From IMG/VR virus record IMGVR_UViG_3300028886_000034, positions 54,081-118,080 of that record: 64,000 nucleotides of DNA; one strand, 5' to 3'. Positions 2,148 to 54,123 of this stretch are shown one piece after another. The notes beneath the pieces were generated by a model, which saw only the letters and a program-made list of their open reading frames with translations, did no database searches and was not told the DNA's origin. Numbering within the stretch: position 1 is the stretch's first letter; each line of letters opens with the position of its first letter. The position numbers and the translations under genes were made by a program. This stretch comes from a virus. Taxonomy: Duplodnaviria; Heunggongvirae; Uroviricota; Caudoviricetes.

Positions 2148-2579
2148 AAAATCCTTTCACCCAAATCAGTGCTTGGGAAATAACAGTAAATAAAGGCTGA
2201 TCTACTTAGAAGATTGTAATGTCTTCATTTGGCATAAGTAGGATAGAAGTCTATTAGGGAATGTAACCCTCAATAAAAATTACCTTGGCTAAGGGATAGA
2301 CTTTATAAAAACTGTTAGAACCTACTACACTTGAGGTAGTAGTTATCCTATGAAACTTAATGTTGAGCCACCTTTAGTAGAAGCTAGAGCAGTGTTGAGT
2401 GGAGGATTCCGGAGAGTTGTCAGGTTACTGCAAGTGGTAAGAAACTGTCATCCTTTGATTGAAAGGGGAAAAGGATTGTAGTACATATATTACGCCCATT
2501 AAAGTCATCGAAAGTACTACACAAATGACCTATTCTTAGGGTCATGTAGATCATATAAATAAGTGAGTCAGTTTTGTAC

Positions 2580-2608
2580 TTGACAAATAACTATACTGCT
2601 GATATAAT
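2580..2608 (+). promoter_or_regulatory. sigma70-type promoter TTGACA-N17-TATAAT
   Basis: The -35 TTGACA is at 2580-2585 and a consensus -10 TATAAT at 2603-2608. It lies about 170 nt upstream of the Thr-Leu-Ile tRNA cluster. Confidence 0.5.
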
Positions 2609-2777
2609 TTTCCTGGATAAAGGTCTTCAGTAAGTAGTTATTGAAAGATCTACACCTTTTAACCATCTATCTATACTATAGCTAAGGATGGAGCACTCTC
2701 TGTTAATCAGAAGTAAAATATAGTATAGAACTTTCCTAAATCTTTTGAGTGATGTAGACTACAAATAAGATTTATTT

Positions 2778-2851
2778 GCCCCTATAGTATAACGGCTATT
2801 ATACTTCTCTTGTAAAGAAGTGATGGAAGTTCAACTCTTTTCCTAGGGGCT
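2778..2851 (+). tRNA. tRNA-Thr (anticodon UGU); CCA encoded
   Basis: The acceptor GCCCCTA/TAGGGGC is 7 bp, followed by T and CCA (2852-2854). The anticodon stem CTTCT/AGAAG closes loop CTTGTAA. The T-stem GGAAG/TTTCC has an enlarged 9-nt loop, TTCAACTCT. Confidence 0.5.
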
Positions 2852-2876
2852 CCATAAAATATAAAAATAGTTAAAT

Positions 2877-2960
2877 GCCCAGGTGGTGGAATAGGTAGAC
2901 ACAAGGGACTTAAAATCCCTTGCCATCTCTGGCGTGGGGGTTCGAGTCCCCCCCTGGGCA
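2877..2960 (+). tRNA. tRNA-Leu (anticodon UAA), class II
   Basis: The acceptor is GCCCAGG/CCTGGGC with discriminator A. The D-stem is 3 bp with a GG-containing loop. The anticodon stem AGGGA/TCCCT closes loop CTTAAAA. The variable arm is a 15-nt hairpin. The T-arm is GGGGG-TTCGAGT-CCCCC. Confidence 0.7.
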
Positions 2961-2972
2961 CCATTATTACAT

Positions 2973-3045
2973 GGACTTGTAGCTCAATTGGTAGAGTAGG
3001 CGACTTATAATCGCCAGGTTCTGGGATCATACCCCAGCGAGTCCA
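2973..3045 (+). tRNA. tRNA-Ile (anticodon UAU); CCA encoded at 3046-3048
   Basis: The acceptor is GGACTTG/CGAGTCC. The D-arm is GCTC-AATTGGTA-GAGT. The anticodon stem GGCGA/TCGCC closes loop CTTATAA. The T-stem is CTGGG/CCCAG with loop ATCATAC. The discriminator A is followed by CCA. Confidence 0.55.
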
Positions 3046-3117
3046 CCATACCTTTGACTTTTAAACTAGTTTACCTAGTTCTTACAAATATAAAACTTAT
3101 AAAAGGAGTGTTTATCA

Positions 3118-3954
3118 ATGTTTACAAAACCTCTTTTGTTGAATGGGGGGAAAGATGAGTATAAGATATACAGAATGACCTTTGCGGAAGCACAAACTTA
3201 TGATTCGACTATTAGTGTTGGGTTTGTTATTAAAAATAAATCTGAAAAATTTAAAATTGTTTTAGTTATAAATGATCGTTTAATTGGTAAACCAGCTGCG
3301 TCAGCTTACGGTACATATGGCAATGGAGACGATCCTTATTATAATACTCCTCCCGATATGGGATGGTTTGAACTAAGAGCATATTGCTCTGATCCTGACA
3401 TAGCCCATTTAGGCTCTTTTTCTATTTATTTTCCATATATCGATCAAACATTTAATTATGACGGAGAAACTTTAACCTATTATGATTATGGTGAAGATTC
3501 ATTTTATAGTATTTATTTATCAAGTAGACCGGCAGATAGCTGTTATAATCGTATAATAGATTTGTTTAACACCTATGTTAGAGAAGACAACAATGATAAC
3601 GTAAGGACCGTTGATATTTCGTATAGAGAAGGTGAAGGCAGATACAAGGGTATGGTGTTAAGGGTTAATAATATATCGGTTGGTGAAAGTGCATATGTTG
3701 AATGGGATTTTGTTCCGTATACAGTTCAACAAACTAGATATCAACTTAATTCTATAACTTTATACTATGATGAAAATCGGGTATATTCTCAGACTTATAA
3801 TAGTTTAACTGCTTCTGGAAGTTGGACAGCTCCAGACCCTGCCTCTGTAAGTGATGTTGGTGAACATACAGTCCGTATAGACTTTCGAGTAGGAATGGAT
3901 GCGTGGTGGCAGAACGAACAATACGATATTTCAAAAACATTTACAGTAACATAA
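3118..3954 (+). CDS. hypothetical protein (278 aa), Tyr/Asp-rich
   Basis: The ORF has an AAAAGGAG Shine-Dalgarno 7-8 nt upstream. No diagnostic motif. Confidence 0.7.
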   Translation: MFTKPLLLNGGKDEYKIYRMTFAEAQTYDSTISVGFVIKNKSEKFKIVLVINDRLIGKPAASAYGTYGNGDDPYYNTPPDMGWFELRAYCSDPDIAHLGSFSIYFPYIDQTFNYDGETLTYYDYGEDSFYSIYLSSRPADSCYNRIIDLFNTYVREDNNDNVRTVDISYREGEGRYKGMVLRVNNISVGESAYVEWDFVPYTVQQTRYQLNSITLYYDENRVYSQTYNSLTASGSWTAPDPASVSDVGEHTVRIDFRVGMDAWWQNEQYDISKTFTVT

Positions 3955-3978
3955 AAGAAAAGAAAGGGTGTAGTTAAT

Positions 3979-4149
3979 ATGTCTGCTAAATACTATCTTA
4001 AAACTGATGAAGGGCATAGAGTTGAGGTTTCTGAGAGCTATTTTGATTCAGTTCAGCAACTTTATGATGAATCAAGTATTTCAGCAACTGGTGATAGCTA
4101 TGGTAATGAGGAAATTGTTCTTTATGTAGACGAAGTTGATATGCCTTAA
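3979..4149 (+). CDS. small acidic protein (56 aa)
   Basis: The ATG at 3979 is preceded by a purine-rich tract, and the ORF is below the track threshold. It is co-directional and tightly spaced with its neighbours. Confidence 0.4.
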   Translation: MSAKYYLKTDEGHRVEVSESYFDSVQQLYDESSISATGDSYGNEEIVLYVDEVDMP

Positions 4150-4159
4150 GAAAGGATTG

Positions 4160-4336
4160 ATGTATAACATGACTGAATGGTATTTTACAGAAGACAGTAC
4201 AGGTACTAGAACAATGGTGAAGAAGAAGGAGTATAAAGATCTTCAGTATCAGAGATTTAAGAATAATGAAGATCCTTATCCACAGAAAGTAGATACTACT
4301 AAACATAACTTGGTAGTGCATACATTGTATGTTTGA
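4160..4336 (+). CDS. small hypothetical protein (58 aa); start uncertain (4160 or 4169)
   Basis: This is the track ORF 4136-4336. AAGGA at 4152-4156 sits 12 nt before the ATG at 4169. Confidence 0.3.
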   Translation: MYNMTEWYFTEDSTGTRTMVKKKEYKDLQYQRFKNNEDPYPQKVDTTKHNLVVHTLYV

Positions 4337-4474
4337 TGTATTCTTTTCCTGGTTATCAGGAGTATTTGATAGTTCAATAAAGTTATTGCCATATATACAA
4401 TACGTAGTTATAATTTTTATAATTGTAATGTTGATAAAAGCTTTTATTTTTGATAAAAATAAATAAGAAAGGAT

Positions 4475-5083
4475 ATGATATTTATGTTGGGTAGTTATGA
4501 GATTCATGTTGTTCCCGGTAAGCTTCCTCAGAAGGTTGCTTCCGCATTTACAGAGATTTTTGGTAATATGGTTGGTGCTGAGTATAATGTGATTGCATAC
4601 CTTGGTAGTAAGGTTGTTTCTGGAGTTAATCATGCTATTCTTGCTACACAGACCATGATTACTGGAAATGATGTTCATAATGTGGTTCTTATTGTTCTTA
4701 ATGAGAAGGATGATAAGTTCAGTATTGTGGAGATTACCAATGTCCTGTCTGACTCTGGTAAGATGGGTGGGGTTCAGATTAATCCTACTACTGATATTCC
4801 TGAAGAGGCCATGAAGGTTCTTGAGGATAATCTTGCTGGATTTGTTGGTAGTAATGTTTCAGTTTTTGCACTTATTGGTACACAGGTTGTCAATGGTGTG
4901 AAGTACGTCTTTGCTGGTGAAACAGAGATGGTGCTTTCTCCTGAGGCTATGACTAAGGGTAATCCTAACAGGGTTGTTCTTATCAGTGTGTATTCCAATT
5001 ACGATAAGATTGAATTCAAGGAGATTCTTGAAGGGGTTCCTCAGCAGGGTCTTCTTGGACAGCCTCTTGGTGAGTGGCCCTAA
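4475..5083 (+). CDS. hypothetical protein with an internal tandem duplication (202 aa)
   Basis: AAGGA lies upstream. Two halves resemble each other: GSKVVSGVNHAILATQTMITGNDVHNVVLIV and GTQVVNGVKYVFAGETEMV...NRVVLISV. Confidence 0.6.
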   Translation: MIFMLGSYEIHVVPGKLPQKVASAFTEIFGNMVGAEYNVIAYLGSKVVSGVNHAILATQTMITGNDVHNVVLIVLNEKDDKFSIVEITNVLSDSGKMGGVQINPTTDIPEEAMKVLEDNLAGFVGSNVSVFALIGTQVVNGVKYVFAGETEMVLSPEAMTKGNPNRVVLISVYSNYDKIEFKEILEGVPQQGLLGQPLGEWP

Positions 5084-5384
5084 TAATAGATAAGCATTGA
5101 CTATAGGTCTATCAGATAGACTACTTAAACTGATCATTTGAGTACTGATATTCCTATAGCCTTTTAAAGAATTAACCATAGGTCTTCGCATCTTCCAGAT
5201 AGCTTAGATACTGATCAACTAAGCAACAGACTTATAAAGCTGCGTATATTCCTATGGCTTTTTAGTTTAAAATTTAATACCTCTCAGAGGGGTGAAATTC
5301 CCCTCAAACCTTTTCTTTTTGACCTGTTTTTTCTTGATTAAAAAAGCAGAGACAATCACCCTTATATAAAGGAGACTACCCATA

Positions 5385-13888: not shown

Positions 13889-16468
13889 ATGGCTTCACCA
13901 CTAACTACATATATAAGATGGTTAGCTACTGAAGGAAATGTGCCATTTCCAGAGGAATGTAAGTCTCTTAAGATTTCCTCTATTTTAAGTTTAGCTGAAG
14001 AAGATTTTGAAACATCTATTGTATTGAATCAGCTTTTCAATAATCCTTATGCGTATAAGTATTCTATTGAAGATATTGCTAAAGTACATAAGAAGTATAA
14101 CACTATTTATAAGTTTAATTATATTCCTGTTAAACCCGTGTTTCCCAAAATTGAAGAAAAACCTAAAAAGAAAGAAACTGATGTAGTTATTAATAAAAAG
14201 AGTAAATATAAATTGTATAGCTCTAAAGAGAAAGAAGATTCTAAGCCAACTGATGGGTATTCTAAGCCTATGCTGTTTAACTTCTATTCAGACTATGTGA
14301 ATAAGGAATTTGCATATGTTATTAGAGTTGGTGATAAAAGATATATTACTCAGACTGATGATATGGTTATGATGTATACCGGTAAAGATGATTATTTAGA
14401 TGTTCATGATATTGCAGGATTAAAAGGTGAACTGGTACATTATGGTAAAAGAAAATACATTATTGAACAAATTCAGTCAGAATCTTCTTATAAAGCTATT
14501 TATAATGTAGATTTTAATTTGGCTATTCATAAGAATTATCTTTGGAAAAAAGAAAACAAAGATAATCTTGGTCATTATAAACTTAGAGTAAATTATGTTG
14601 ATATTGAGTTGTATCAAGAAGGATATGGTATTATTGACTTTGCTGATATTAAGAAGTCAGCTAGAGTTATTCCCGTTAACTTGATTACTTTGTATGATAA
14701 TTATACTGACAAATATTATACTTTGGTCTATAATTTAAACAAAGCTAAAATTAATACTGAACAAATTAAGGAATATCTTGATTACAAAGATGAGTGTATT
14801 TTCAATGTAGAAATCTTTGATAAAGAAAGTGATATGTTCCTTAAGTTCTTCAGTTTATTGAAAGAATTTGATCCAGATCTAGTATCTGGGTGGAATAGTG
14901 ATGAATTTGATTTACCTTATATTAAGTATAGAGCAGAATTTTTAGGAATTGAACATCCTAAACTGGCTCATAATAAAACTTTTGAAATTGAATATAAAAC
15001 AGTTATGAATAAACATGAAGAGGAAGTTACTTATTGTATTCCTCATATTGGTTATTCTGTAGCACTTGATTATCAAAGATGCTATAAGGAAAGAACTCTT
15101 GGTAAAAAAGAGAATTATAAGCTTGGAACTATTTCTAAAATTGAGTTGGGTATTACTAAACTTGATACTGAAGATGGCATGGATAAAATCTTTAGGGAAG
15201 AACCTGAAAGGTTTATTGCATACAATATTAACGACGTTCATCTTGTAAGAAAATTGGATGAAAAGTTGAAGTATATTGACCTTAATTTTAGTATAGTCCA
15301 GTTGGCTAATATCTCATGGGATAGTATTTATACTACTCTACATATTTGTGATGGGATTCTTTATGAGTATCTTATGGATAGAGATAAAGTAGCCAAAATT
15401 GTTAAAGCTGGAATTGAGAAGAAAAAGTTTGCGGGTGCTTATGTTAGAGAACCAATTAGCGGTGTACATGATTGGTTGGGTGATTTGGATCTTACTTCTC
15501 TTTATCCATACATTATGGCAAGATATAACATTAGTGCAGATACCTATGTAGGAAAAGTTGATACAGATACTGCTAGACAATATATCTTTAATAAAGAAGA
15601 ATTTGTTAATTCCAATACAGATGTAAGTTTGTATTTGAAAGTTCAAGGTATTGAGAGATTGTATAAATTGTCTGCTAAAAGTTTTCATGAAAGAATGCTT
15701 AAGAATGGGTATATTATTACCCAGATTGGCACTATCTTTAAGAAGCATGAAGATAAGCAGTCAGTTCTTTATGATATTGTAGATATGCTCATTAAAAAGA
15801 GAAAAGAGTATAAAGATCTTATGAAGGATAATATTGGTAAAGACCAAATGCTAGTTGACAGATATGATACTATGCAGAAAACAGTTAAGATCATTACTAA
15901 TTCTCTTTATGGTGGTCAGTCCAATATTAGATTCAGATTGTATGATTATGAGGTTGCCAGAAGTATTACTTCTACTGGTAGAGAAATTGCTAAAATCGCC
16001 GCAGTAGTTGCTAATAATTGCATTAATCAAATGATTCAAAATAAATCTAATAAATTTGACCATGTAGATATTCCTTTTGATTGGGATTACCAATCAGAAC
16101 AAGCTCTACCAAATGTAATTTATGGAGATTCAGTTACTGGAGATTCTTTAATCAGAACTGGTAAAGGTAATATAACTATTAAAGAACTTTGGGATATGTG
16201 TGCTTCGGATAATAAAGTGTGGCATTATCTCGGAAAAAATTATATTCAGAATCCTAATAAATGCGTACTTGGATATGATGACAGACTTTATTTCCCAAGG
16301 TATCTGATGAAGCATAAAACTAATAAGAAACTGTATAAGATTACTACTGAATCTGGAAAAACAGTCACTGTAACTGAAGATCATAGTTTGGTAGTAATGA
16401 GAAATAATGTTAAAACTATAATTAAACCAACAGAATTAGTTGTAACAGACCAACTAATCACCTTATAA
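13889..16468 (+). CDS. family-B DNA polymerase, N-terminal gene (palm motifs A, B and first half of C) fused to an N-terminal split-intein fragment (about 112 aa)
   Basis: Pol B motif A is DLDLTSLYPYIM and motif B is KIITNSLYGG. The motif C tripeptide YGD sits at 16121-16129. It is followed directly by an intein block A (SVTGDSLIRTG...IKEL) and block B (VTVTEDHSLVV), then a stop. Confidence 0.9.
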   Translation: MASPLTTYIRWLATEGNVPFPEECKSLKISSILSLAEEDFETSIVLNQLFNNPYAYKYSIEDIAKVHKKYNTIYKFNYIPVKPVFPKIEEKPKKKETDVVINKKSKYKLYSSKEKEDSKPTDGYSKPMLFNFYSDYVNKEFAYVIRVGDKRYITQTDDMVMMYTGKDDYLDVHDIAGLKGELVHYGKRKYIIEQIQSESSYKAIYNVDFNLAIHKNYLWKKENKDNLGHYKLRVNYVDIELYQEGYGIIDFADIKKSARVIPVNLITLYDNYTDKYYTLVYNLNKAKINTEQIKEYLDYKDECIFNVEIFDKESDMFLKFFSLLKEFDPDLVSGWNSDEFDLPYIKYRAEFLGIEHPKLAHNKTFEIEYKTVMNKHEEEVTYCIPHIGYSVALDYQRCYKERTLGKKENYKLGTISKIELGITKLDTEDGMDKIFREEPERFIAYNINDVHLVRKLDEKLKYIDLNFSIVQLANISWDSIYTTLHICDGILYEYLMDRDKVAKIVKAGIEKKKFAGAYVREPISGVHDWLGDLDLTSLYPYIMARYNISADTYVGKVDTDTARQYIFNKEEFVNSNTDVSLYLKVQGIERLYKLSAKSFHERMLKNGYIITQIGTIFKKHEDKQSVLYDIVDMLIKKRKEYKDLMKDNIGKDQMLVDRYDTMQKTVKIITNSLYGGQSNIRFRLYDYEVARSITSTGREIAKIAAVVANNCINQMIQNKSNKFDHVDIPFDWDYQSEQALPNVIYGDSVTGDSLIRTGKGNITIKELWDMCASDNKVWHYLGKNYIQNPNKCVLGYDDRLYFPRYLMKHKTNKKLYKITTESGKTVTVTEDHSLVVMRNNVKTIIKPTELVVTDQLITL

Positions 16469-20753: not shown

Positions 20754-21863
20754 GTGGCTCAGTTAGAATATTGTTTGATAGACGGTAGCATTAAGAATAT
20801 TTCTGAAGTAGTGTCTGGGTTGCATAATTATATCTGCCCTATATGCGGGGAGCCTTTAGTAGCTAAAAAAGGTAATATTGTTGGTCATCATTTTTCACAT
20901 TTACCGAATAGTAAATGTCCAGCTTCAGTTTATGTTCATGGAGAGACTAATTTACATTTAGGCATGAAAAAGATTATTATGGAAACAGGCCTATGTAGGA
21001 TGCCTGAATTAGATATTGATTGGAATGGTAATATTATAAATCCTAATACGCTTAGTATGGGCACATCATATATTAGGATTAAAGAATCAAATTTTTATAA
21101 ATTTAATAAGGGTTATCTTGAAAAAAATTTAAATTGTGCTAATGGGAAATATATTAGACCCGATTTGACATGCTATGATGTTAGTTATGAGGAAATGTTT
21201 GGATTTAATAGCTCTCCATGTAGCGTGTATCTTGAAGTAACAGTAACCCATGGAGTAGATGATGTAAAACTAGATTTAATTAAATCTATAGATACTAATA
21301 ATTTTTATGTTGTAGAGTATGACTTATCTAAAGTAAATAGAGAATCTACATATGACGAATTAAAACAGGCATACTTAAGCGGCAGTATTCCATGCAATTG
21401 GATTCATAGAAGTGGTGAGAGCGACCTAGTTTGTGATAGATCTTATGAATACGCTTTTCGAGTTACAAACGGAGTTAAATGGTATGTAGATAGGTTTTAT
21501 GACAATCTAACTGATGAGGGATTAGATGCTTTAAAAGAGACTGACATTATAGAATATATGGAACAAAAGAAGTTTAAGAATATATTAGAAAATAAAAATT
21601 TTAATGGATTAGATCTAACAAGACAGTGGACATTTTTTAGAAACGAATTTCCAAGGTCGATTGTTACATCAAACGTTAATTTTTGCCCACAATTTCAGGA
21701 CTACCATATAAGGAAAAAGGCACCAGTGATGATTCAGTGCTTATCGTGTAAGCACTGTAAGAGAGCAACTTATTTTAATAGTAATAGCTATCCTAAATTT
21801 ATTATCTTATGTGAAGATAAGACAGCTCGTAATGGATATAAGGTTTTTAATAAAGCCTCTTGA
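20754..21863 (+). CDS. CoiA-like zinc-finger/nuclease family protein (369 aa), GTG start
   Basis: The N-terminal signature YICPICGEPLVAKKGNIVGHHFSHLPNSKC matches the competence CoiA family pattern CPxCx...KxG...HFxH...C. AGAGGG lies 9 nt before the GTG at 20754. Confidence 0.5.
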   Translation: MAQLEYCLIDGSIKNISEVVSGLHNYICPICGEPLVAKKGNIVGHHFSHLPNSKCPASVYVHGETNLHLGMKKIIMETGLCRMPELDIDWNGNIINPNTLSMGTSYIRIKESNFYKFNKGYLEKNLNCANGKYIRPDLTCYDVSYEEMFGFNSSPCSVYLEVTVTHGVDDVKLDLIKSIDTNNFYVVEYDLSKVNRESTYDELKQAYLSGSIPCNWIHRSGESDLVCDRSYEYAFRVTNGVKWYVDRFYDNLTDEGLDALKETDIIEYMEQKKFKNILENKNFNGLDLTRQWTFFRNEFPRSIVTSNVNFCPQFQDYHIRKKAPVMIQCLSCKHCKRATYFNSNSYPKFIILCEDKTARNGYKVFNKAS

Positions 21864-21925: not shown

Positions 21926-23410
21926 ATGCAACTTACTGCTAGTTTTAACTTTTATAGAAGACCTGGAAATGAAGAAGTATATGATTGGCTTGTAGAAGCA
22001 TGTACTGTTGCTAAGAATTTGTATAATCAGACACTGTACTATGCTTATGAGTTTAAAGAAGCTTATGACCCGGTTAGAGAACAATATAAAAAAGAAACTG
22101 GTAAGTCTTTTCCTTGGTTTCCAGACGAATACGTTGGTTTTGAAAAACCTGTCGATGATTTTTTTAAAGTAATGAGTTTGAGGAGATATGCCAGTGAACA
22201 AGATGAGAACGGTGAGTATTATACTAAAAATCTTGAGGGTAAAAGTAATTGGGAACTACTTAAAAATCTTGTAGGTAGAGATGCAACTACAGAGGTAATT
22301 AGAACATTACTATCTAAAAATTTAAAATCATATGGAAGATCCCTTGGGGATTGGAGTAGGCACCCGGAAAAATATAAAGGAATGCCAAGAAAGCCCGGTT
22401 TTTATAAAAAAGGAGATCTGTGCCCATTATACTTTTCTGGTACTTCTATTAAAATTAACTCAAAAACTAGAAGTCTTGTGTTTCCTAAGCCGAGGGGAAC
22501 GGATGGATATAATAAAAGCATTTATATCCCACTTCAAAAATTGCCACATAATTCGGAGTATGTAAAAGGAAAAAGAATTGACCAAGTTAGGATAATTCCT
22601 AAAAAAGGATATTTTAAGATTGAAATAATTTATACGTATAATGAATCGGTTCCTAAACTTGATAATAAACGATATCTTAGTATTGATTTGGGTATTAGAA
22701 ATTTTTGTACTATAATTACTAGTGATGATAAACTTAATCCAGTTATCCTTGATGGTAATGCTTTGAAATCTAAAATTAGATTTTATCATTTAATGGTAGA
22801 TAAACTTAAACATAAGATTGAAGTTATTACTGATGAAAATGGGAAGAAAAGACCTAAGCAGTATACTACTAAGAGAATTGAAGCAATGACAAAGAATCAT
22901 ATTAATCGTATAAATTATATCGTTGATGCATATACTAAGTATATTGTTAGATATTGCCTCCATTATAATATTTGTAGAGTTATTTGCGGTTGGAATAAAG
23001 ATATGAAGCAGAAGATCAATACTGGGCATAAAAATAATCAAATTATTGTTAACTTTCCTTTTAAAAAACTACTTGACAAACTCGAATATAAGTGTAAAAT
23101 GAGGGGCATAAGCTTCGAGATTGTTGAAGAGTCTTATACTAGTAAAACAGATCATCTTAGAAATGCTCCCTTGGCTACTAAAGAAGACCCTGAAACTAGA
23201 GATGAGGCTAACTTTGGTAAAAGAATTCACAGAGGATTGTTTTCTTCTGGGGTTGGAAAGTTGGTGAATGCTGATGTAAATGGCGCTATGGGTATTATGA
23301 GAAAAGCAATTCCAGATTTTAGTTGGGTTGGATACCATCCATTTCATCCAGTTAGGATGAGAGTTAAAGACGTAATTGAAGGTCTAAAGTATTCTAAATT
23401 CCCTAAATAA
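21926..23410 (+). CDS. TnpB/Cas12-like RuvC-fold protein (494 aa), candidate compact type V CRISPR effector
   Basis: The RuvC-I motif is LSIDLGIRNF (D254). A TnpB-like helix NHINRINYIVDAYTKYIV follows. The YTSK motif is EIVEESYTSKTDH and RuvC-III is NADVNGAMGI (D450). The gene lies directly upstream of a CRISPR array. No CxxC zinc finger is present, and the usual IxxEDLN position reads VICGWNKDM. Confidence 0.7.
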   Translation: MQLTASFNFYRRPGNEEVYDWLVEACTVAKNLYNQTLYYAYEFKEAYDPVREQYKKETGKSFPWFPDEYVGFEKPVDDFFKVMSLRRYASEQDENGEYYTKNLEGKSNWELLKNLVGRDATTEVIRTLLSKNLKSYGRSLGDWSRHPEKYKGMPRKPGFYKKGDLCPLYFSGTSIKINSKTRSLVFPKPRGTDGYNKSIYIPLQKLPHNSEYVKGKRIDQVRIIPKKGYFKIEIIYTYNESVPKLDNKRYLSIDLGIRNFCTIITSDDKLNPVILDGNALKSKIRFYHLMVDKLKHKIEVITDENGKKRPKQYTTKRIEAMTKNHINRINYIVDAYTKYIVRYCLHYNICRVICGWNKDMKQKINTGHKNNQIIVNFPFKKLLDKLEYKCKMRGISFEIVEESYTSKTDHLRNAPLATKEDPETRDEANFGKRIHRGLFSSGVGKLVNADVNGAMGIMRKAIPDFSWVGYHPFHPVRMRVKDVIEGLKYSKFPK

Positions 23411-23520
23411 ACAGGGGATGTATTTGGGTAAGTTTGGCAAACCCATTTAAATAAGATCATCAGAATCAGCGATGTGAATTTAAATAAAGTTAATGAAAAT
23501 TAACTGCCTCCGGATTTATT

Positions 23521-23542
23521 CGGATACGATACTTTTTATTTG
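23521..23542 (+). ncRNA. candidate tracrRNA anti-repeat
   Basis: The segment CGGATACGATACTTTTTATTTG can pair with the repeat 3' half CAAATAAGGGTATCGTAT. ATACGATA pairs with TATCGTAT (8 bp) and ATTTG pairs with CAAAT (5 bp), linked by A-U and G-U pairs. It lies between the effector gene and the array on the same strand. Confidence 0.4.
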
Positions 23543-23621
23543 TTTTTACGTATGGAAAATGCTGTTTTTTACAACTGAATATTGAATAAACTCAGTATTT
23601 GTAAGAGTTTGCGTATAGGAT

Positions 23622-24247
23622 ACTATACGGTACTTACAAATAAGGGTATCGTATAACAAAAGAAGATACAACAGACGATAAAAAAGAACTATACGGTACT
23701 TACAAATAAGGGTATCGTATAACATGATATTAAAGAGTATGCTGATTTGGGTGACTATACGGTACTTACAAATAAGGGTATCGTATAACTCTAACTATTA
23801 CTGCTATTACCTCATCATCACTATACGGTACTTACAAATAAGGGTATCGTATAACGCTATCTTCTTCCTGCATGGTCCATCACATACTATACGGTACTTA
23901 CAAATAAGGGTATCGTATAACAGTGATGTAAAAATGAAATTTAATGATGTTACTATACGGTACTTACAAATAAGGGTATCGTATAACAGACATTTTAAAC
24001 ATGAGTATTTTAGCACTATACGACACTTACAAATAAAGAGTATCGTATAACTTGACGTGCTCTTTCAGTTCTGGTATACTCACTATACGTTACTTATAAA
24101 TAAGGGTATCGTATAACTATGAGCTTTTGGAGTAGTGGAATTGTTTTACCATGTGGACTTACAAATAAGAATATCGTATAATTGATACCTGATTAGTATT
24201 GTATTGCCCATACTATACAGGACCTACAAATAAGAATATTGTGTAAT
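23622..24247 (+). CRISPR. CRISPR array with 10 repeats (35-36 nt; consensus A-CTATACGGTACTTACAAATAAGGGTATCGTATAAC) and 9 unique spacers of about 28-31 nt
   Basis: Repeats begin at 23623, 23689, 23755, 23821, 23887, 23953, 24016, 24083, about 24149 and 24213. The first six are identical and the last four are progressively degenerate. The AT-rich leader is therefore at the 5' side (23410-23620). Confidence 0.85.
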
Positions 24248-24301: not shown

Positions 24302-25297
24302 ATGAAGATAGAGAGTGTTAAATCAATAGAAGTGATTACTCCAGAAGAACCTATTGATGTATATGATATTGAAATGCCAGATGATGATCATTGTTTTTTT
24401 GCAAATGACATATTAGTTCATAATACAGATTCAATTTTTACTAAATATGGCGATGCATTGAAAGCAATTTATGGAAAAGATTATGATGAAATTTCTGACA
24501 AGGAAAAGATAGATAAAGTTATTGAATTGAATGAATCTGTAGCACAGTATATTAATAATGTAATGATTCATGAACTTCTTAATATGCATAATACATCTCC
24601 TACAGAATCTTCGGCTAAAAAGTTTAACTTTAATTTTAAACAGGAACTTGTTATTAGAAGAGCTTTGTTTCTGGAAATCAAAAAGAAGTATGCTATTTGG
24701 TTAGTTTCCAAAGAAGGAAAGCCTTTGGATAAAATCAGTATTAGTGGTATAGAAGTTGTAAGATCTGATTATCCTCAATTTAGCAGAGATATGTTAAATG
24801 ATTTTATTGAGCATATCCTTAAGAAAGGAATCAGTAAAGAAGAGCTTACCACTAAGATTGATGATTATAGAGGTAGATATGTTGAGCAGTTAAAAACAGG
24901 TACAGTTTATTGTGCTATTCCAAGTTCTTGGAATAAAGAAAACTATGCCCAAGATAGACTGCCAAGATCAGTTAAATCTATGTTGGTATATAATGCAATT
25001 TATGGAAGTACCTTTAGAGTAATGGATAGAGGCTATAGATTTGACTTGGAAGAAATTGATATAGGTCAATTTGATTCAGATACACAAAGACGCTTGACAG
25101 ATTTAGTTCGATCTGGTACAATGGGTAAAGAAGGTAAGTTAGATTGTATTACTATTCCTACTAATGGTACATTAGATTTAACTAAGTTTAGAATTAATTA
25201 TAATAAAATGCAAGAATTTGCAGTTGATGATCGTATTTCTAATTTTTGTGATATCTTTGGGATTAAAGTTGATGATCCTAATGATATAGGTTGGTAG
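24302..25297 (+). CDS. C-terminal split-intein fragment (about 41 aa) fused to the C-terminal part of family-B DNA polymerase (rest of motif C plus thumb)
   Basis: The intein blocks F/G end in VYDIEMPDDDHCFFANDILVHN. The C-extein follows immediately and starts TDSIFTKYGD, which completes YGD|TDS. The KKRY-type motif EIKKKYAIW lies downstream. An AAGGA Shine-Dalgarno precedes the gene. Confidence 0.85.
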   Translation: MKIESVKSIEVITPEEPIDVYDIEMPDDDHCFFANDILVHNTDSIFTKYGDALKAIYGKDYDEISDKEKIDKVIELNESVAQYINNVMIHELLNMHNTSPTESSAKKFNFNFKQELVIRRALFLEIKKKYAIWLVSKEGKPLDKISISGIEVVRSDYPQFSRDMLNDFIEHILKKGISKEELTTKIDDYRGRYVEQLKTGTVYCAIPSSWNKENYAQDRLPRSVKSMLVYNAIYGSTFRVMDRGYRFDLEEIDIGQFDSDTQRRLTDLVRSGTMGKEGKLDCITIPTNGTLDLTKFRINYNKMQEFAVDDRISNFCDIFGIKVDDPNDIGW

Positions 25298-53260: not shown

Positions 53261-54123
53261 TACTTTAGTAAATCGCCGCCAACATCTACTATATCTTCAG
53301 CTTTATTACTTCTAGTTGTATTGAGCATAAATAAGATACTTAATAACCATCCCTTTATAATAGATATAAAGCCTAAAAATATACCTGAAACCATAGCCCC
53401 TATTGCTAATGGAGTATATGATTTATCAGCAAGATATTGTAGTGCAGCATCGCTGTTAGGTATTCCTAATGCACCAAATAATCCACTAAATCTAGCCTTT
53501 GCAAATTCTGAAGCACTAAATCCACCGGCTTTTAATGAAGCGTATCCTAATAAAAAAGGTATTAATGTTATGACGACAAATATTAGCATTGAGCTTAAAG
53601 TAAATAATATAGGGTGCTTAACGGTTTTTCGAATATAGGAGTTTAATTTAGATACTTTGTTTTGCCCGATTATCTTCCAATATAAAAATCTTGTCATAAC
53701 TCCCCAAGCCAAAATCCAGCTAACAATTTTACCTCTTCCTGCCTCTCTATTCATAGAGTAGGTTATCCAAGATGCTTCAATACATCCAACTCTAAACTCT
53801 TCTGGTAAATTTTTAGAAGAAAATTTTTTACGAAGATTTTTATCTATAAGCTTTTTAATTTCTTCATCATTATCAGTATTTCGAATCTTATTAACATCCT
53901 GCATCCATTCGCTATCGTTAATTCCAGGAGTTTGTTTTGATGCTTTAGAAAGCTTTTTTAGTCCATCTGTACAGAGTTTTTTAATTGAATCCATTGTTGT
54001 GCCTTCTGAAAAATTCTGACTATAAAACTTTATAGCTCTGTTTAGATTTTCAGCATTATCTATATATGGAAATTTATTAGTATAATTATCATATACTTCT
54101 TTTAATATAAGTTTTTTATTCAT
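53260..54123 (-). CDS. membrane-anchored protein, paralog family member 1 (287 aa)
   Basis: It shares an N-terminal region with 55775 and 57052: KFPYID..., KKLCTDGLKKLSK, NLPEEF.VGCIE..WITY..NREAGRGK.VS.ILAW.V..RF.Y.K, then hydrophobic helices. Confidence 0.6.
   Translation of the reverse strand: MNKKLILKEVYDNYTNKFPYIDNAENLNRAIKFYSQNFSEGTTMDSIKKLCTDGLKKLSKASKQTPGINDSEWMQDVNKIRNTDNDEEIKKLIDKNLRKKFSSKNLPEEFRVGCIEASWITYSMNREAGRGKIVSWILAWGVMTRFLYWKIIGQNKVSKLNSYIRKTVKHPILFTLSSMLIFVVITLIPFLLGYASLKAGGFSASEFAKARFSGLFGALGIPNSDAALQYLADKSYTPLAIGAMVSGIFLGFISIIKGWLLSILFMLNTTRSNKAEDIVDVGGDLLK

Follow-up and report, generated by a model that had tools for sequence, protein, structure and literature searches.

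A TnpB-derived effector with glycine at the canonical RuvC-II position and no zinc finger, encoded beside a CRISPR array in a tailed-phage genome

The effector gene and its CRISPR module

We analysed a 64,000-nucleotide stretch of a tailed-phage genome (Caudoviricetes; positions 54,081 to 118,080 of IMG/VR record IMGVR_UViG_3300028886_000034; hereafter the window) that encodes a TnpB-derived protein with a single RuvC domain, the effector, next to a CRISPR (clustered regularly interspaced short palindromic repeats) array. The effector carries Gly355 where TnpB and Cas12f proteins have the RuvC-II glutamate, an invariant glutamate further downstream, and a TNB domain without its zinc finger. 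Read from sequence, glycine together with a relocated glutamate is a known rearrangement of the active site; what is new is the setting, a CRISPR module of a phage with an effector that lacks the zinc finger. The region in question, positions 22943-23306, corresponds to residues 340-461 of the 494-residue open reading frame (ORF), in which the motifs are SIDLG (placing Asp254), VICGWNKDM (352-360), EESYTSK (401-407), and NADVNGA (placing Asp450). The features of the locus are listed in Table 1.

Profile searches placed the effector in the TnpB superfamily, with 112.9 bits against the NCBIfam guided_TnpB model (NF040570; cutoff 100) and a Pfam TNB (Cas12f1-like) match at residues 379-457 that spans the full model (E = 1.3e-9; score 38.5, cutoff 26.3); PHROGs labels it a transposase. 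Pfam OrfB_IS605 scored 27.1, under its cutoff of 30.5. The protein falls outside the Cas12f family, since the NCBIfam Cas12f2 model gave 37.4 bits against a cutoff of 450, and the PADLOC Cas12f and Cas12u3 models matched at just 1e-10 to 1e-12. An AlphaFold2 (AF2) model based on an alignment of 121 homologues (predicted local distance difference test, pLDDT, 84.2; predicted template modelling score 0.78) has the WED, REC, and split-RuvC fold of the superfamily, and a Foldseek search with it against the PDB returned AsCas12f (2e-15), ISFba1 TnpB (3e-14), ISDra2 TnpB (8e-13), other Cas12f proteins, and Fanzor2 (1.2e-8). At least 2554 relatives were found among candidates scored from 5.8 billion proteins. 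Five of these are close (52-99% identity), and the remainder are standalone TnpBs of ~410 residues with 31-38% identity, the phage-clade effectors being ~80 residues longer owing to clade-specific insertions. Neither IMG/VR nor the JGI metagenomes yielded close relatives.

The array starts 211 nucleotides past the effector gene, and its 36-nucleotide repeat folds as a 12-bp hairpin. The non-coding region between them is ~79% identical to those of two related loci (L003 and L004) and 78% identical to that of a third (L002). It contains an anti-repeat that forms a duplex of -28.2 kcal/mol with the repeat (z = -5.0 against shuffled repeats), and in the alifold consensus two anti-repeat segments pair with both arms of the repeat hairpin. 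Repeats differ by lineage, and the matching anti-repeat between gene and array covaries with them in L004, L166, and L001; over the four repeat lineages, the duplexes range from -28 to -32 kcal/mol (z = -4.2 to -6.7 against shuffled repeats). A matching anti-repeat in this position predicts a tracrRNA (trans-activating CRISPR RNA), and we propose that a putative tracrRNA is encoded between the effector gene and the array, with a predicted span of about 23411-23570. Rfam gave no match at the locus, and, coding sequence aside, the tracrRNA and repeat region did not resemble the omega-RNA regions of standalone TnpBs.

The whole module, with effector, conserved intervening region, and array, is also present in L164 and L165 (effectors 99% identical), L003 (85%), L004 (84%), L166 (80%), and L001 (52%), while the contig of L002 (77%) ends ahead of any array position. 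Wherever the contig continues, the module lies directly upstream of the same gene. At least five diverged phage lineages have the effector gene and array at a single, shared genomic position. Conserved array adjacency with a cognate anti-repeat is the arrangement expected of type V and TranC systems. The gene is under purifying selection, with a whole-gene dN/dS (ratio of nonsynonymous to synonymous substitution rates) of 0.05-0.39 against relatives. Its most constrained part in the CRISPR-linked clade is residues 341-465, from RuvC-II to RuvC-III (dN/dS 0.04-0.13), which argues against a relaxed, vestigial nuclease domain and is no proof of catalysis.

A further array-linked member of the clade with glycine, relocated glutamate, and no zinc finger was seen in L109, with the effector at 472-1809 and an array of six repeats at 1870-2235. 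This 445-residue effector has Gly at the canonical site, EEGHTS instead of EESYTS, and NADQN at RuvC-III, and is 50% identical to standalone TnpBs and 29% identical to the phage effector; its 36-nucleotide repeat is partly like that of the window, with no clear anti-repeat (z = -1.6). Since the L109 protein is nearer to standalone TnpBs than to the phage effector, it would represent a second, independent array capture, which suggests at least two captures in this clade, one by the phage lineage and one by L109.

Table 1. Features of the effector locus, with window coordinates
Feature	Position	Strand	Basis
Effector gene, 494 residues, TnpB-derived CRISPR-associated single-RuvC protein	21926..23410	+	ORF, profiles, Foldseek
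Asp254 codon (GAT), RuvC-I catalytic Asp (predicted) in SIDLG	22685..22687	+	121/121 homologues, 80/80 loci; end of strand 250-255
Gly355 codon (GGT), canonical RuvC-II Glu position, beta4 end	22988..22990	+	strand 351-355; 121/121 homologues, 76/77 aligned loci
Glu401 codon, non-invariant neighbour of Glu402	23126-23128	+	
Glu402 codon (GAG), predicted relocated RuvC-II glutamate	23129..23131	+	121/121 homologues, 68/68 loci; after strand 396-400
TNB insert without zinc finger, residues 403-447, with beta-hairpin of R433, R436, G437	23132..23266	+	no Cys; strands 432-435, 438-440
Asp450 codon (GAT), RuvC-III catalytic Asp (predicted) in NADVN	23273..23275	+	121/121 homologues, 66/66 aligned loci; start of helix 449-461
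Conserved non-coding region, putative tracrRNA and leader, anti-repeat 23523-23556	23411..23621	+	identity, duplex, alifold
CRISPR array, six perfect 36-nucleotide repeats (ACTATACGGTACTTACAAATAAGGGTATCGTATAAC), 30-nucleotide spacers, then four degenerate distal units	23622..24247	+	

The RuvC-II position and the TNB insert

In the AF2 model, Gly355 ends the beta4 strand, where canonical TnpB and Cas12f proteins carry the RuvC-II glutamate, and hidden Markov model (HMM) alignments to AsCas12f and ISDra2 TnpB placed that glutamate within ~3 residues of Gly355. The canonical active site, in which a glutamate ends beta4 and the TNB domain holds a C4 zinc finger, is thus not that of the effector. 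In alignments of 25 and 121 sequences, Asp254, Gly355, Asn357, Glu402, Arg433, Arg436, and Asp450 were invariant and Glu401 close to invariant. A sequence-only reading of the window had noted the glycine in VICGWNKDM, the absence of the zinc finger, and Asp254 and Asp450 as the RuvC aspartates, and all of these observations are borne out.

The same reading had offered Glu401 or Glu402 as a functional substitute for the missing glutamate. One of the two patterns of our genome scan for homologues was EESYTSKxD, so that evidence on these residues from the scan may be circular, and we therefore used an independent set of 80 metagenome loci picked by unrelated N-terminal and beta4 patterns. Position 402 was Glu in all 68 aligned loci of this set, while position 401 was variable (E45, D12, N7, K2, Q1, G1), which makes Glu402 the conserved acidic residue; Glu401 was rejected as the catalytic candidate, and the earlier suggestion holds for Glu402 only. 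Gly was found at position 355 in 76 of the 77 loci aligned there, and Asp at positions 254 (80/80) and 450 (66/66 aligned). Asp359, the only acidic residue near Gly355, was also considered as a substitute and rejected, being Gly in 85 of the 121 homologues.

Glu402 lies 47 residues past Gly355 and, in the AF2 model, comes directly after beta5 (strand 396-400). A profile alignment to AsCas12f set it opposite the Pro of DPQYTSQRC, seven residues ahead of the first zinc-finger Cys, which is the 'ExxxxxxC' alternative-glutamate position of Yoon et al. (PMC10711439). Fanzor2 was not reached by the profile search, so no direct residue alignment to E467 of ApmFz2 was obtained. A non-acidic canonical position with a conserved glutamate ~45-50 residues downstream, after beta5, is the signature of the rearranged RuvC-II site, and the effector has both parts. 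Large TnpB clades in which the RuvC-II glutamate is replaced by Gly and compensated by a glutamate on beta5 instead of beta4 have been described (PMC10691335, PNAS 2023), in a study where changes to the RuvC-II motif were already noted for branches of 'TnpB (or Cas12)'. The alternative glutamate occurs ~45 residues downstream in all Fanzors and 'TnpB2' proteins; E467A abolished cleavage by ApmFNuc, and the rearranged TvTnpB cuts double-stranded DNA in a manner dependent on the transposon-adjacent motif (TAM) and without collateral activity (PMC10530073). In the cryo-EM structure of ApmFz2 the triad is Asp324/Glu467/Asp501, with the glutamate shifted by ~50 residues (PMC11832414). We predict that the catalytic triad of the effector is Asp254/Glu402/Asp450, which would assemble in a geometry comparable to that of these proteins.

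The cysteines of the effector are at positions 26, 166, 261, 344, 350, 354, and 390 only, with none from 391 to the C-terminus. The stretch from the YTS motif to RuvC-III is free of CxxC motifs and of any Cys, hence there is no C4 zinc finger, and the full-length Pfam match indicates that the TNB domain is retained without its zinc ligands. No CxxC was found between EESYTS and NADxN in any of the 121 homologues or in 55 genome loci; together with Gly355 in 121/121, this makes the arrangement a fixed family trait and not sequencing noise. A single vestigial Cys at position 408 is kept in ~80% of homologues. Arg433 and Arg436 are invariant (121/121) and Gly437 was likewise counted invariant, all in the beta-hairpin of the TNB insert, which points to a conserved replacement of the zinc finger and not to its decay.

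The zinc-finger-less Ealt clade to which the effector belongs comprises at least 484 genome loci in many phyla of bacteria and archaea, some metagenome-assembled genomes holding several copies. An IS607-type serine recombinase lies directly upstream of tnpB in 57 of 159 fetched loci, and the closest standalone relatives are IS607-type elements (L167-L172; for example L167, 2415-4242) in which a gene for a 200-residue serine recombinase overlaps the start of tnpB. These IS607 relatives are rearranged while ISFba1 uses the canonical glutamate, so both active-site types occur among IS607 elements. Because the clade is widespread and mobile, the loss of the zinc finger is old, clade-wide, compatible with a transposon life, and not specific to the phage protein. 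Zinc-finger loss or mutation has been reported in some large TnpB branches, and for the zinc-finger-less RIIIr-4 clade conserved catalytic-site rearrangements were argued to imply activity (PMC10691335).

Two further observations concern this part of the protein and its clade. Residues 362-374 (window 23022-23047), the loop from beta4 to the next helix, have a pLDDT below 50 and hold a KNNQ motif, with N371 invariant and N370 and Q372 near-invariant; by its position this loop presumably corresponds to the 'lid' with which Cas12 enzymes gate their RuvC site. A 462-kb uncultured phage (LR756500.1) encodes, at L173 2302-3171, a standalone TnpB from this clade, with no array and between large tail-fibre-like genes. 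The motifs of this TnpB are VVGYNKKWKQ, HEESYTSKCD, and NADINGA, and its ORF of 289 residues may be N-terminally truncated.

Spacers and phage genome context

The arrays of L164 (5697-5997) and L165 (3493-3793) use the repeat of the window and share none of its spacers, while their effectors are 99% identical to that of the window. The same repeat and near-identical effectors with different spacer sets indicate that the arrays turn over. A homing-drive idea, with spacers aimed at relatives without the insert, was also considered and found no support in spacer matches within the window and 173 loci.

The window, a tailed-phage genome, encodes a tail sheath, a T4-like family B DNA polymerase (PolB), a DnaB-type helicase, and ThyX. 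L004 comes from a rumen assembly, and the tailed phage that hosts the module is probably from the rumen. No TnpA or resolvase gene was found in the window and the effector gene is single-copy, an arrangement that differs from a transposon context.

The slot between thyX and the effector gene varies in content, being occupied by a CoiA-like protein in the window (20754-21863) and by an HNH endonuclease in L164 (slot 2498-3088), L165, and L002 (slot 2726-5094); in L002, thyX itself has a LAGLIDADG insertion. The slot would seem to be a mobile-nuclease hotspot. The polymerase is divided by a split intein into two plus-strand ORFs 7.8 kb apart. The ORF at 13889-16468 contains the PolB exonuclease and N-terminal polymerase region and after it, at residues 760-857, the N-terminal splicing domain of an intein, and the ORF at 24302-25297 opens with a C-intein of ~41 residues (...HCFFANDILVHN|TDS, YGDTDS site) and continues with the remainder of PolB. 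The CRISPR module ends directly upstream of this C-terminal half, and in L001 and L004, too, this IntC-PolB gene comes after the array. Among 70 window ORFs, PADLOC additionally found matches to models for an orphan DNA methyltransferase (2.3e-54), a homing endonuclease, PbeA-like proteins, and a small 'Unk_01' protein that is in some cases CARF-fused.

Predicted activity and relation to known systems

We consider it likely, from residue conservation, the structural model, and analogy with characterised proteins, that the effector works as an RNA-guided endonuclease, of TranC or miniature type V character, that cuts DNA with Asp254, Glu402, and Asp450. It would derive from an IS607-type TnpB recruited to a CRISPR array in a tailed phage. 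In the course of this descent the beta4 glutamate would have become Gly355, its role passing to the invariant Glu402 after beta5, and a zinc-free hairpin with the invariant Arg433 and Arg436 would have taken the place of the C4 zinc finger in the TNB insert. A tracrRNA expressed from the interval between gene and array would pair through its anti-repeat with the 36-nucleotide repeat, and the processed CRISPR RNAs (crRNAs) would carry 30-nucleotide guides 3' of the repeat. The ribonucleoprotein would bind target DNA flanked by a protospacer-adjacent motif (PAM), and the single RuvC site would cut both strands. Collateral activity on single-stranded DNA is probably absent, as reported for other proteins with a relocated glutamate.

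Several points weigh against this proposal. The TNB zinc finger matters for activity in Cas12f, and we found no biochemically tested member of the exact zinc-finger-less clade in the literature. No protospacer was found for any of the 38 spacers, with nothing beyond chance in searches of the whole array and the 38 pooled spacers against GenBank phages, of three spacers and the repeat against IMG/VR, and of every spacer against both the window and 173 loci. Cas1 and Cas4 were absent among the 70 ORFs of at least 100 residues in the 64-kb window, a size cutoff under which a Cas2 of ~90 residues would fall, so the detected genes offer no account of how spacers are acquired or exchanged. Finally, the best phmmer match in the PDB was a 'nuclease-deactivated Cas12f', at a weak E of 0.034 and spanning the helix and beta4 region only.

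This match and the missing protospacers, which would have revealed a target, are among the points in favour of a nuclease-dead protein. The sequence-only reading had leaned towards such a protein, an RNA-guided binder whose RuvC domain was killed by loss of the glutamate and the zinc finger and with which the phage silences genes of its host or of rival phages, in the manner of TldR, Cas12k, and Cas12m, to which Cas12c may be added. The canonical glutamate is indeed Gly and the zinc finger is gone, but the three acidic residues of the rearranged triad are invariant, also in L109 and throughout the CRISPR-linked clade, whose members go down to 52% identity, and glycine with an invariant glutamate ~47 residues on, just after beta5, is the documented active rearrangement, with which TvTnpB and ApmFz2 cut DNA. 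RuvC-III (NADVNGA) is intact, unlike in truncated TldRs, the segment from RuvC-II to RuvC-III is the most constrained in the gene, and hundreds of mobile IS607 TnpBs, which must cut to fulfil their selfish function, have the same traits in fixed form. The effector thus shows neither the uncompensated catalytic loss nor the truncated RuvC-III of dead derivatives, and we regard a nuclease-dead binder as unlikely.

A RuvC site that is active for something other than double-strand cleavage of the target, such as processing of the crRNA precursor or nicking of one strand, appears to us very unlikely. Here the zinc-free TNB domain would be unable to load the second strand. The TNB and zinc-finger module is thought to help in feeding substrate strands into RuvC, the zinc-finger replacement and the low-confidence loop 362-374 leave substrate handling uncertain, and Cas12m-like enzymes keep RuvC-dependent RNA processing without DNA cleavage. 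Against this stand the invariant hairpin of Arg433, Arg436, and Gly437, which points to a replacement, the mobility of the IS607 relatives, and the zinc-finger loss reported for large TnpB branches, among which RIIIr-4 was argued to be active (PMC10691335). It is highly improbable that an unrelated repeat array happens to lie beside the gene and that the gene itself is an ordinary TnpB of a transposon or a relic in decay. The guided_TnpB and transposase labels of NCBIfam and PHROGs would fit it, as would the array-less TnpB of the same clade in the huge phage of L173; however, the window shows a single-copy gene with no TnpA or resolvase, gene and array share one position in at least five diverged phage lineages, anti-repeats covary with repeats, purifying selection is strong, and the phage effectors are ~80 residues longer through clade-specific insertions.

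The locus joins a Fanzor-type rearranged RuvC site to a CRISPR array and is a candidate new miniature type V lineage. We suggest tentatively, as possible but somewhat short of probable, that it is an undescribed CRISPR lineage that combines a Fanzor-type relocated glutamate with a zinc-free TNB effector and stems from IS607 TnpBs. According to PMC11832414, only Fanzors and the TnpBs ancestral to them, a branch apart from Cas12, have the rearranged site. A CRISPR-linked example would qualify that statement, and it would extend the idea of a repeated recruitment of TnpB to CRISPR to a branch thought to lie outside Cas12. The case also indicates that loss of the beta4 glutamate does not amount to inactivation when an invariant glutamate follows beta5, which guards against filing such proteins as dead Cas12. 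Spacer turnover without detected cas1 or cas4 raises the question of how the array is renewed. In practical terms, a small, zinc-independent effector with predicted natural tracrRNA/crRNA pairs from several diverged lineages is material for PAM and cleavage assays, and the 494-residue protein, if active, could serve as a compact editor without collateral activity.

Among known systems, the RuvC-II-rearranged TnpBs (TnpB2/Ealt/RIIr, for example TvTnpB of Thermoplasma volcanium) share with the effector the Gly at beta4, the alternative glutamate ~45-50 residues downstream just before YTS, the NADxN form of RuvC-III, and, in the standalone relatives, a length near 410 residues. They are transposon-borne, whereas the effector is CRISPR-associated, has insertions of ~80 residues, and has no C4 zinc finger. 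That finger is part of RIIr-5 and of the search pattern for pro-Fanzors. Fanzor2 of the ApmFz2 type (PDB 9b0l) has the triad D324/E467/D501 against the predicted D254/E402/D450, with a spacing between the first Asp and Glu of 143 against 148 residues. Unlike the effector, it is a eukaryotic-virus protein with DPG in RuvC-I, a retained zinc finger, an N-terminal extension with a nuclear localisation signal, an omega-RNA, and no CRISPR array. Pro-Fanzors and Fanzors are defined by DPG in RuvC-I and ExxxxxxCxxC...CxxC (PMC10711439); with DLG in RuvC-I and no CxxC, the effector is neither. The IS607-family TnpB ISFba1 (PDB 8iaz) is the best structural match among TnpBs, and the closest standalone relatives of the effector sit in an IS607 context; ISFba1 differs by its canonical glutamate (D194/E290/D371) and by an RNA derived from RAGATH-18, whereas no Rfam family matched at the effector locus.

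TldR, Cas12k, Cas12c, and Cas12m share with the effector the loss of the canonical RuvC-II residue, whereas the effector has a compensating glutamate, an intact RuvC-III, spacer turnover, and no Tn7 machinery or partner-gene context. Cas12r of the Thermus Lalka phages is likewise a phage-encoded TnpB-like gene with a short degenerate array and gives RuvC-dependent interference, but it is 564 residues long, has 29-bp repeats, is independent of tracrRNA, and belongs to a thermophile-specific TnpB branch. Cas12f differs in that the effector scores under the Cas12f2 cutoff, lacks the zinc finger, and has its glutamate relocated. In organisation there is a parallel with the TranC and Cas12f-like miniature type V systems. 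TranCs are transposon-CRISPR intermediates (Jin et al. 2025, cited in PMC13565253 and bioRxiv 10.64898/2026.03.27.714800), and the shared features are a TnpB-sized single-RuvC effector, a short adjacent array with no adaptation genes detected, an anti-repeat or tracrRNA between gene and array, 36-nucleotide repeats, and phage-borne cases such as CauTranC9. In these features the organisation of the effector locus matches the TranC concept.

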